Made by a program: the position numbers and the translations under genes. This document shows, piece after piece, positions 60,639-62,647 of a stretch of 64,000 bases of DNA. The first letter of the stretch is position 1; each line of letters opens with the position of its first letter. The notes under the pieces are model-generated. The model did not search any database. It was given only the letters and a program-made list of their open reading frames with translations, and had not been told where the DNA came from. Origin of the DNA: an uncultured Actinomycetota bacterium (GTDB lineage: Bacteria; Actinomycetota; Actinomycetes; Streptosporangiales; Streptosporangiaceae); assembly GCA_963759545.1 (NCBI GenBank), contig CAVXAB010000015.1, positions 45,055-109,054 on the forward strand. The letters are read 5' to 3'.

Positions 60639-61313
60639 TCAGTGCGCGGCTTTGAAGACGACGCCGAGTGTCTCAAGGCCGTGCAGGAAAAGCTGCACGC
60701 CAACGGCGGCGAGCAGGATGCCGAGCAGCCGGGAGAGCACCTCGAGGATGCTTTCGTGCGTCCGGCGCAGCACCGGCGCGAATACCACTGCGCACAGCGC
60801 GTCAACGAGCGCGACCAGCGCGAACGCCCCCGCGACGACCCACCGCGCGCCCCAGTCGCTCGCTGAAAGCGACACTTCAAGGTCGGCGGCGACCGCCAGC
60901 GGGCTGACCACGAACGGCAGCAGCATCGCCCGGAACCCGGTCCTGAGCGGGTGTGACGGGTCGGCGTCGGCGTCGCCCTCGTCGCCCTCGCCGTCAGGTA
61001 TCGCCGTAGCCGGTGCCTCGGCGTGGTCGAAATGGATGCCGAGCACCAGCCCGACCGCGTAGATGAAGAACACGATGCCAGCGGCCAGCGCCAGGGCGGC
61101 CTGACTGATGTGGAAGAAGGTCGCCAGCCAGGGAGCCGTGAGCGCGCACAGGGTACCCACGATGGCCGCCGTGAACGCGGTGGCCACGGCCACCAGGCGC
61201 AGCGAGCGGACGTCAAGGGTACGGGCGATGTGCGCGAACGAGAGCAACACCTTCTGCGGCCCGGCCAGCGCCAGGAACGTGATGAAGGTGTCGGCGAGGT
61301 TGAGGCTGGCCAT
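60639..61313 (-). CDS. MarC-family membrane protein
   Basis: FITFLALAGP, AAGIVFF, LPFVVSP, SRLLGILLAAVGVQLFLHG. Confidence 0.8.
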   Translation of the reverse strand: MASLNLADTFITFLALAGPQKVLLSFAHIARTLDVRSLRLVAVATAFTAAIVGTLCALTAPWLATFFHISQAALALAAGIVFFIYAVGLVLGIHFDHAEAPATAIPDGEGDEGDADADPSHPLRTGFRAMLLPFVVSPLAVAADLEVSLSASDWGARWVVAGAFALVALVDALCAVVFAPVLRRTHESILEVLSRLLGILLAAVGVQLFLHGLETLGVVFKAAH

Positions 61314-61405
61314 GACTCATGATGATGACGCGGCTACACGCGTAGCACCAGTAACCAGCACCCTTTGTGGTACCTCAGGCGTCGGGGCCGTGTAATATCG
61401 ACTCC

Positions 61406-61471
61406 GTGTCACGGTGGTATTGGCGCTTTACGACGGCTCCGGGTGGAGCCGTGCGTAGTCACGCGCGCTAA
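61406..61471 (+). CDS. Putative leader peptide MSRWYWRFTTAPGGAVRSHAR (leaderless GTG)
   Basis: TAATAT -10 box at 61393-61398, 7 nt before GTG; W-Y-W-R-F cluster; directly upstream of DAHP synthase. Below the ORF-track cutoff. Confidence 0.72.
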   Translation: MSRWYWRFTTAPGGAVRSHAR

Positions 61472-61582
61472 TAGTCACCCGGAGCCAGCCGCGGGCGAGG
61501 CAACGGCCACGTCCGAATTCAGAGGGCGTAGCTGGCTCGCGGAAGACCCCGGGCACAGCGTGCCCAGGAGGAGAAAACCCCG

Positions 61583-62647
61583 ATGTCGCGCGTCAGTGAT
61601 ACCAGGATTGTCGGCTACGAGCCACTGTTGTCCCCTGCTGCCCTGCTCCACGAGCTCCCACTGGGTGAGGCGCAGCAGGAGACGGTGGCGCGGACCAGGG
61701 CTGAGGTCCGCGCGGTGCTCGACGGCACCGACGACCGGCTGCTCGTGGTCACCGGTCCCTGCTCGGTCCACGACCCGAAGGCGGCGCTCGACTACGCGTC
61801 CCGCCTCGCCGGCCTGCGGGAGCGGCTGGCCGACGACCTGTTGATCGTGATGCGCGTGTACTTCGAGAAGCCGCGCACGGTGACGGGCTGGAAGGGCCTG
61901 ATCAACGACCCGGGCATGGACGATTCCTTCGACGTGCACCGTGGCCTGCGCACCGCCCGCCGCCTGCTGCTCGACATCGTGGGCGCCGGGATGCCGGTGG
62001 GCTGCGAGTGGCTTGACCCGATCACGCCGCAGTACATCGCGGACACCGTGACCTGGGGCGCGATCGGCGCCCGCACGACCGAGAGCCAGGTGCACCGCCA
62101 GCTCGCGTCCGGCCTCTCCATGCCGGTCGGGTTCAAGAACGGCACCGACGGCGACGTCCAGGTAGCGGTCGACGCGTGCCGCGCCGCGGCGGTCAGCCAC
62201 ACGTTCTTCGGCGTCACGGCCGCCGGCGCGGCCGCCGTGGTGACCACGAGCGGCAACGCCGACACGCACGTGATCCTGCGCGGCGGCCGCAGCGGCCCGA
62301 ACTACTCGTCCTCGCACGTGACCAAGGCCCTCGACCTGATCTCGGCCGCCGGCCTGCCGCGCCGCATCATGGTCGACGCCAGCCACGGCAACAGCGGCAA
62401 GGACCACACCCGCCAGATCGGCGTCGCCGACTCCCTGGCGGATCAGCTTACGGGCGGCCAGCACGGGGTGGTCGGCGTGATGCTCGAGTCGTTCCTGGTG
62501 GCGGGCCGCCAGAACCCGGGCAACCCGGCGACCCTGACCTACGGTCAGTCCGTCACGGACGCGTGCATGGACATCGAGATGACGACGTCGGCCCTGGAAA
62601 CGCTCGCCGCGTCGGTACAGGCCCGCCGCGGCTCCTCTTCAGATTGA
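61583..62647 (+). CDS. Class I (AroF/G/H-type) DAHP synthase
   Basis: GPCSVHD, MRVYFEKPRTVTGWKGLINDP, IGARTTESQVHR, PVGFKNGT, DASHGNS, SVTDAC. Confidence 0.96.
   Translation: MSRVSDTRIVGYEPLLSPAALLHELPLGEAQQETVARTRAEVRAVLDGTDDRLLVVTGPCSVHDPKAALDYASRLAGLRERLADDLLIVMRVYFEKPRTVTGWKGLINDPGMDDSFDVHRGLRTARRLLLDIVGAGMPVGCEWLDPITPQYIADTVTWGAIGARTTESQVHRQLASGLSMPVGFKNGTDGDVQVAVDACRAAAVSHTFFGVTAAGAAAVVTTSGNADTHVILRGGRSGPNYSSSHVTKALDLISAAGLPRRIMVDASHGNSGKDHTRQIGVADSLADQLTGGQHGVVGVMLESFLVAGRQNPGNPATLTYGQSVTDACMDIEMTTSALETLAASVQARRGSSSD

Follow-up and report, generated by a model that had tools for sequence, protein, structure and literature searches.

A leader-peptide element precedes the gene for class I (AroFGH-type) 3-deoxy-7-phosphoheptulonate (DAHP) synthase in a 64,000-nucleotide stretch of DNA from a 69% GC actinomycete; this whole stretch is called the window below. 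A short open reading frame (ORF) rich in aromatic codons is followed by RNA segments termed A, B, C and D and by a hairpin termed T, and segment C can pair with either A or D. Judged from comparison with related loci, the element is real, conserved and uncatalogued, and most likely a further case of a ribosome-based amino-acid sensor. That comparison supports the translation signatures of the leader, its aromatic and rare-codon pattern, the helices A:C and T, and the complementarity of C and D. On balance, we favour the view that the element is an attenuator of the class I DAHP synthase gene in which a ribosome on the leader ORF does the sensing; it would toggle between A:C and C:D, with C:D, the starvation state, as ON. 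DAHP synthase is the entry enzyme of aromatic amino-acid synthesis.

The leader ORF and competing helices in the window

The entire leader element is held in a 269-nucleotide (nt) spacer that separates the class I DAHP synthase gene from a NAAT/MarC-family transporter gene. The parts of the locus are listed here, with the −10-like box, the leader ORF and the Shine-Dalgarno sequence (SD) read directly from the letters.

61393–61398, plus strand: −10-like box TAATAT, 7 nt before the leader start codon; a TAnnnT box is kept in relatives
61406–61471, plus strand: leader ORF of 21 codons, GTG to TAA (61469–71), M/V-SRWYWRFTTAPGGAVRSHAR; the frame is kept across relatives
61415–61429, plus strand: sensor codons TGG TAT TGG CGC TTT (W Y W R F); UAU and UUU are rare codons
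61435–61445, plus strand: segment A (GGCTCCGGGTG), beginning 5 nt after UUU; perfect complement of 61476–86; partner B or C
61445–61456, plus strand: segment B (GGAGCCGTGCGT); the local hairpin A:B spans 61430–61457 (−18.4 kcal/mol)
61476–61489, plus strand: segment C (CACCCGGAGCCAGC); 61476–86 pairs with A and 61482–89 with D, the two being mutually exclusive
61492–61515, plus strand: hairpin T (−13.7 kcal/mol), nested between C and D, with tail GAATTCAGAGG; counterpart of the U-tailed, terminator-like hairpin of relatives
61531–61542, plus strand: segment D (GCTGGCTCGCGG); its partner is the 3′ half of C
61547–61571, plus strand: SD-adjacent hairpin (−14.7 kcal/mol), pairing the first G's of AGGAGGAG; position kept in close relatives
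61566–61573, plus strand: SD of the DAHP synthase gene, AGGAGGAG, with AGGAGG at 61566–71
61583–62647, plus strand: class I (AroFGH-type) DAHP synthase, 354 amino acids, ATG at 61583, the regulated gene of the proposed scheme; NCBIfam TIGR00034, 504 bits, E 1.6e-151
60639–61313, minus strand: NAAT/MarC-family transporter gene, divergent

The position of the TAATAT box suggests a leaderless transcript, with a predicted start at about 61405–61407. Translated from the GTG at 61406, the leader ORF reads V/MSRWYWRFTTAPGGAVRSHAR, and the peptide starts MSRWYWRF. Four of five consecutive codons are aromatic, which gives the locus the general hallmark of a leader-peptide attenuator, namely a short ORF with a cluster of codons for the pathway products before a biosynthetic gene. 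Such clusters are scarce: at least four aromatic codons occur in 10 of the 117,380 stop-free stretches of five codons in the six frames of the whole window, and these fall in four places, the leader among them. An earlier note, made from this DNA alone, had called TAT and TTT rare for this GC content, and they are so; in the 33 likely genes of the window TAT makes up 4.9% of the Tyr codons and TTT 3.2% of the Phe codons.

Three pairs of segments downstream of the sensor codons are perfect complements: ACGGCTCC/GGAGCCGT (61433–40/61445–52), GGCTCCGGGTG/CACCCGGAGCC (61435–45/61476–86; A:C) and GAGCCAGC/GCTGGCTC (61482–89/61531–38; C:D). A second hallmark of attenuators, mutually exclusive helices of which one abuts the sensor codons, is thus present, as A:C and C:D share C and A lies 5 nt after UUU. 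The two duplexes are close in energy (A:C −26.7 versus C:D −24.4 kcal/mol), and the spacer region folds better than 200 of 200 shuffles (z = −3.5). The 111 nt from the leader stop to the ATG contain 8% U, 36% G and 33% C, and a terminator scan of the locus returned no terminator-like site and no U-tract. The TAATAT box, the GTG 7 nt further on, the 21-codon ORF, the three helix pairs and the lack of a U-tract all lie where the earlier note had placed them, and the hairpin that it saw abutting the SD is present at 61547–71, where it overlaps the first bases of AGGAGG.

An Rfam 15 scan of 61200–61700 (cmscan, E up to 10) gave noise only, with a best score of 16 bits and no match to Trp_leader or Phe_leader. 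A simple sigma-70 consensus scan of the locus found no full promoter, as is expected for actinobacterial promoters, so that this is no argument against one.

The leader start (61406–61414) and the DAHP synthase start (61583–61591) both encode Met-Ser-Arg in near-identical nucleotides (GTGTCACGG versus ATGTCGCGC; ATGTCACGC at the related loci L001 and L137). The shared start could be a coincidence or a trace of the leader's origin.

Conservation and distribution among actinobacteria

The nearest relatives of the host are Trebonia metagenome-assembled genomes (MAGs), whose DAHP synthases are 84–90% identical. Of the first 80 related class I DAHP synthase loci, 28 have a matching leader. A covariance model, R1, was built from 28 of these leaders and has a single hit in the genome that contains the window. 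Of 151 Actinomycetes sampled evenly, 13 carry a TIGR00034 enzyme and 10 of these have the element, eight being found by R1 adjoining a class I DAHP synthase gene and two by eye (YFWF and WFAYF). R1 with strict filters misses divergent members such as those of genomes G077 and G097, and its counts understate the family. The remaining three of the 13 genomes are of the window's own family (G050, G104 and G127; loci L240–L242); they encode a class I DAHP synthase that scores as high as that of the window and have no aromatic leader within 400 nt upstream, the element having been lost or replaced there.

The design is also frequent in Mycobacteriales. Forty-eight genomes in a sample of 151 carry a class I DAHP synthase, and the leader is present at 35 of the 38 loci examined, comprising all 30 best-scoring loci and five of eight further ones. 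The three exceptions, L277–L279, are divergent, lower-scoring class I paralogues (E ~1e-110) without an aromatic leader in very GC-rich Mycobacteriales (G186, G169 and G280); these paralogues without the switch may be dedicated to secondary metabolism. Five small Mycobacteriales genomes were tried, and none has a class I DAHP synthase. A metagenome scan with a 15-mer yielded mostly chance matches, with nine genuine elements among 120 loci. A weak match in G006 (E 0.009) was discarded and supports no claim.

The leaders differ by clade, with WYWRF in Trebonia and other Streptosporangiales, YWRFI.APGGA in Mycolicibacterium and Mycobacterium, and GYRAF in Dactylosporangium; further leaders occur in Dietzia and in Solirubrobacterales (YFYFWRF* and PYWRFS*). 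The aromatic cluster is conserved as aromatic in more than 80 loci.

Codons and spacings were counted in 57 aligned elements, four of which were read out of frame by the script. A TAnnnT box precedes the in-frame start by 7 nt in 40 of the 57, by 6–8 nt in 51 and by 6–9 nt in 52. The start codon switches at a fixed position among GTG (37), ATG (18) and TTG (2, both among the loci read out of frame), and most relatives retain the reading frame together with a stop 30–48 nt past the Phe codon. The final sensor codon is TTT in all 53 correctly parsed relatives, and the Tyr codon is TAT in 53 and TAC in three. The gap from UUU to helix A is fixed at 5 nt, or at 8 nt in some relatives. The sensor positions vary almost only among W, Y, F or neutral residues, as in WYWRF, YWRF, YWFF, YWWF, YFWF, YRWF and YSWF, with YPYF, WYAYF, WFTYF, YSSF, YRAF and FAF as further variants. 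Neither a fixed RNA motif nor a fixed arrest peptide is expected to vary like this; selection for aromatic codons, and for U-ending ones that are read slowly, explains the pattern. The constants of the family are the Tyr codon and the final Phe codon, Trp being optional. The earlier note had proposed that the switch integrates all three end products; this copy does contain W, Y and F codons, but the reading does not extend to the family, in which only Tyr and the final Phe are constant.

Covariation was assessed on alignment A3, which holds 56 distinct sequences. In it the pairing of A:C amounts to 95.9%, with double-sided changes at four pairs, and that of hairpin T to 95.1%, with compensatory changes in 10 of 10 pairs; these numbers are generous, since the alignment was fitted by model to this very structure and the sequences are related. 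The observed A:C and T scores were reached by none of 500 shuffles, and slid controls were about 40% paired. Nearly all of 55 elements have a stretch that can pair with C no more than about 25 nt from T; in two it lies further out (median z against shuffles −1.9). The C and D sequences differ by clade yet stay complementary, as in GGAGCCAGC/GCUGGCUCC, CCCAGAGCCGGC/GCCGGCUGUGGG, CUUCAGAGCCAGCC/GGCGGGCUCUGCAAGG and CCGGAGCCC/GGGCGCCGG. Segment B occurs in Streptosporangiales, mycobacteria and Dactylosporangium and is missing in some clades, so that A:B is clade-specific. The conservation of the aromatic ORF upstream of class I genes and the compensatory changes in both helices are the two comparisons that the earlier note had proposed, and together they support its view of a ribosome-stalling, leader-peptide cis-regulator with competing helices.

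The tail of T is U-rich in most clades (UUUCGUCAUU, UUUUGU or UUUUUUG) and there resembles an intrinsic terminator. It is not U-rich in the Trebonia clade (the window, L001, L002, L137, L140 and L178) or in L003–L008. One divergent member, L243 of G077, has no T hairpin at all; directly after the leader VQRVYFWF..., its C (GAGCCGG) and D (CCGGCUC) fold into a plain hairpin whose loop has 7 nt, which supports C:D rather than T as the core of the switch. A pairing of an AAGGGCG box with the Arg-Phe codons was considered as a reason for the invariance of nucleotides in the leader and dropped, as it is not kept in M. colombiense-type, L086 and L087 leaders; the box instead pairs with the T tail or belongs to clade-specific hairpins.

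The same RNA scaffold, with A, C, a U-tailed T and a leaderless start, was also seen at L089, L091 and L092 (G080, G148 and G002, all of the window's family). The leaders there read MGRYSSF... or MNRCFAF..., they do not stand before a class I enzyme, and the three genomes have no TIGR00034 protein. At L092 the scaffold precedes a 410-residue protein that weakly matches type I-beta DAHP synthase and a C-terminal chorismate mutase domain; it has thus been reused for a second aromatic gene.

Proposed mechanism, output step and alternative explanations

We infer the transcription start, the stalling, the polarity of the ON state, the output step (an effect on translation, on Rho or on the stability of the mRNA) and the part played by T as follows. 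Transcription would start at or beside the GTG at 61406 and give a leaderless mRNA, on which a 70S ribosome reads the 21-codon leader. A shortage of charged Tyr-, Trp- or, most of all, Phe-tRNA would make the ribosome wait on UAU, UGG or UUU, of which UAU and UUU are rare and wobble-read. With UUU in the A site, its leading edge would reach the 5′ half of A (GGCUC). The freed 3′ half of C (GAGCCAGC) would then pair with D (GCUGGCUC) in a junction that encloses T, and expression of DAHP synthase would go up. When aromatics are plentiful, the ribosome would reach the UAA at 61469 and depart, A:C (about −27 kcal/mol) would form, and D would be left free in a less productive downstream fold. The output in this genome would most likely be translation initiation or mRNA fate and not intrinsic termination, because T here lacks the U-tail kept by relatives.

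To model the states, nascent transcripts were folded for seven and then 13 diverse members, with a ribosome masked at Y, F or the stop and also with the 3′ arm of T omitted. In classical attenuators a terminator (3:4) competes with an antiterminator (2:3). T lies inside the loop of C:D and D is made only after T, so the textbook terminator/antiterminator scheme does not apply; nor does the window offer an intrinsic terminator as one of the alternative structures, as it has no U-tract. Clades without the U-tail still have the A/C/D toggle, so its output must lie downstream of T. When C was forced into C:D, modelling gave a more open initiation region for 24 of 48 relatives and a less open one for five, which leans weakly towards C:D as the ON state. 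In the sister clade L003–L019, D (CUCCCGG) is complementary to the SD region (CCGGGAG). Thermodynamic folding of the full-length RNA is uninformative on SD accessibility, as spurious long-range pairs dominate in 69% GC RNA. Two other devices were considered and rejected: a −1 frameshift site, as there is no slippery heptamer, and segment C as a decoy ribosome-binding site, as GGAG becomes AGAG in several clades and no start codon stands at the right spacing.

A number of observations weigh against the proposed mechanism, beside the generosity of the covariation numbers. With UUU in the A site, helix A starts about 11–12 nt from the first P-site base; A therefore lies at the edge of the stalled ribosome's unwinding reach and may stay paired. 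No antiterminator for T appeared in the folds described above, where T was present in each of the states and no other conserved partner was seen for its 5′ arm. Between the states, the modelled accessibility of the SD in the window is nearly equal (0.67–0.71 in one modelling, 0.71 versus 0.78 in another). The SD-adjacent hairpin at 61547–71 is local and does not involve D, and in the window's clade the D:SD pairing is broken by a mismatch (CUCGCGG; −8.1 kcal/mol). The earlier note's preference for SD access or Rho over intrinsic termination therefore stands only in part: it is plausible in this copy, whose T has no U-tail, but SD accessibility hardly changes and most relatives are U-tailed. 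Finally, the leader stop has been lost by a change of TAA to TTA in four close relatives, L003, L004, L006 and L008.

In L004 the loss of the stop lets the leader frame enter the DAHP synthase ORF in frame, and in L003 the leader and that ORF overlap over 132 codons in different frames. The aromatic clusters of L006 and L008 are weakened (WYRRF and RYQRF). The four loci may represent a decaying or rewired switch, or MAG errors.

The position of helix A also opens the way to the opposite wiring, which we regard as improbable though the best of the alternatives. A stalled ribosome would leave A:C intact as the ON state, and full translation would unwind A, let A:B form behind the ribosome and pass C to D as the OFF state. 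A duplex can persist from about 11–12 nt off the first P-site base, as ribosome helicase studies indicate, and the fixed 5-nt gap puts helix A at just that distance. In Mycolicibacterium, moreover, the fold of lowest energy in the absence of a ribosome is an extended A:B hairpin that takes in the Arg and Phe codons, and masking by a stalled ribosome shifts A to C. Chains of pairing drawn by eye in mycobacterial and L105-type leaders (D:E, then E against the SD region) likewise fit A:C as the open state, but such chains are fragile in RNA this GC-rich. The forced-state folding leans the other way (24 of 48 against five of 48), a free D is directly complementary to the SD in the L003–L019 clade, and a stall at UUU should cover at least the GGCUC of A.

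The second alternative concerns the output step only and is compatible with the favoured toggle. The output would be Rho-dependent termination or polarity, with Rho loading on an unstructured, untranslated, C-rich stretch between the leader stop and the DAHP synthase start. The window has no U-tract and about 110 untranslated nt with 33% C after the leader stop, and there is a precedent in M. tuberculosis, where, as outlined in a preprint, Rho and translated upstream ORFs shape premature termination (bioRxiv 10.1101/2022.06.01.494293). The stretch contains more G (36%) than C (33%), however, and strong structure in all of the modelled states makes it ill suited to Rho loading; we give this output a small chance, slightly below that of the opposite wiring.

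It is very unlikely that the element is RNA-only (a riboswitch or protein-binding site) with an incidental ORF, or that YWRF is an arrest peptide that senses free aromatics like TnaC: TATTGGCGCTTT is nearly invariant, synonymous sites included, across Trebonia, mycobacteria, Dietzia and others, but the family-wide variants TAT CCG TAT TTT, TAT TGG TTT TTT, TAT CGA TGG TTT and TAC AGC TCG TTT, among others, keep aromatic identity and U-ending codons rather than sequence, which fits codon-level selection and not a fixed RNA motif or arrest peptide, while reading frame, switching start codons and the stop in the loop have been retained and there is no Rfam match.

A bolder form of the favoured toggle can be put forward tentatively. 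The family might be a purely post-transcriptional three-segment toggle in which T acts as a structural clamp in the ON junction, and not as the regulated terminator, and selection for the wobble-read, rare UAU and UUU codons (at least 95% versus about 3–5% genomic) sets the sensitivity. If so, its attenuator logic would be distinct from the terminator/antiterminator scheme and would be found before most class I DAHP synthase genes of actinobacteria, environmental mycobacteria among them.

Relation to known attenuators

The closest known system is that of Corynebacterium glutamicum, where a Phe-Tyr-Phe leader, aroR, lies upstream of aroF (cg1129), a class I DAHP synthase gene (Mentz 2013, PMC4046766). 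Both are actinobacterial systems in which a short ORF rich in aromatic codons stands directly before a class I DAHP synthase gene. According to the summary of Neshat 2014 in PMC11802643, attenuation at aroR-aroF is relieved by Phe limitation and not by Tyr limitation; in that account, ribosome stalling at the Phe/Tyr codons raises expression and the Phe codon is decisive, which fits the universal final UUU found here. Unlike aroR, with Phe-Tyr-Phe and no Trp, the leader of the window reads W-Y-W-R-F. Furthermore, aroR is described as acting on transcription read-through, whereas the hairpin of the window has no U-tail and no antiterminator was found for it. Homology of the two RNA scaffolds, in sequence and structure, is indirectly likely, because 35 of the 38 class I DAHP synthase loci examined in Corynebacterium's order carry this design.

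Like the enterobacterial trpL, pheL and pheM leaders (Rfam Trp_leader and Phe_leader), the element has cognate codons grouped in its leader ORF, helices that exclude each other, and a stop codon shortly ahead of the middle segment. It differs from the trpL/pheL type in that T sits in the loop of C:D and competes with nothing, in that the mRNA appears leaderless, and in the lack of an Rfam match. A second parallel comes from mycobacteria, in which a duplex that sequesters the SD is opened by ribosomes stalled on leaderless polycysteine short ORFs (Canestrari et al., bioRxiv 10.1101/834739); SD access of this sort is one of the outputs that the earlier note had inferred for the present element. 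The present leader is likewise a putatively leaderless sensory short ORF in an actinobacterium; the mycobacterial system, however, senses cysteine rather than aromatics, and its short ORF pairs directly with the SD region, whereas the putative link between switch and SD is indirect here. Streptomyces lividans has the leaderless leader peptides leuL, trpL, thrL and metL, several of them followed by hairpins without a U-rich tail (PMC8079986). The present element resembles these in its predicted leaderless start, its high-GC actinomycete host and its hairpin without a U-rich tail, but none of the S. lividans leaders is aromatic-general or linked to DAHP synthase.

In a survey of 2005, no RNA elements turned up for the Phe or Tyr genes of Actinobacteria (PMC1262725), and a full-text literature search returned no description of this family outside Corynebacterium. 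The belief of the earlier note that the arrangement had not been described has nonetheless to be given up, as aroR-aroF is known in C. glutamicum (PMC4046766, PMC11802643) and leaderless SD-level attenuators are known in mycobacteria (bioRxiv 10.1101/834739). The aroR leader would instead be the local form of a design that precedes most class I DAHP synthase genes of Actinomycetes and is absent from Rfam. The family raises the question of near-absolute rare, U-ending Tyr and Phe codons as a tuning of the ribosomal sensor. It also raises that of an attenuator working with a terminator-like hairpin that has no competing antiterminator and, in some lineages, no U-tail. Deletion of aroR has been used in C. 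glutamicum production strains to raise aromatic flux (PMC7356990), and a comparable handle on aromatic flux, in the form of the leader, probably exists in many actinomycete producers.

Elsewhere in the window, the count of aromatic codon clusters drew attention to positions 1971–2200 of the plus strand, where at least five copies of Phe-Trp-x-Trp-Phe codon blocks occur (TTC TGG TCC TGG TTC and similar). This run is probably a repeat inside a protein.

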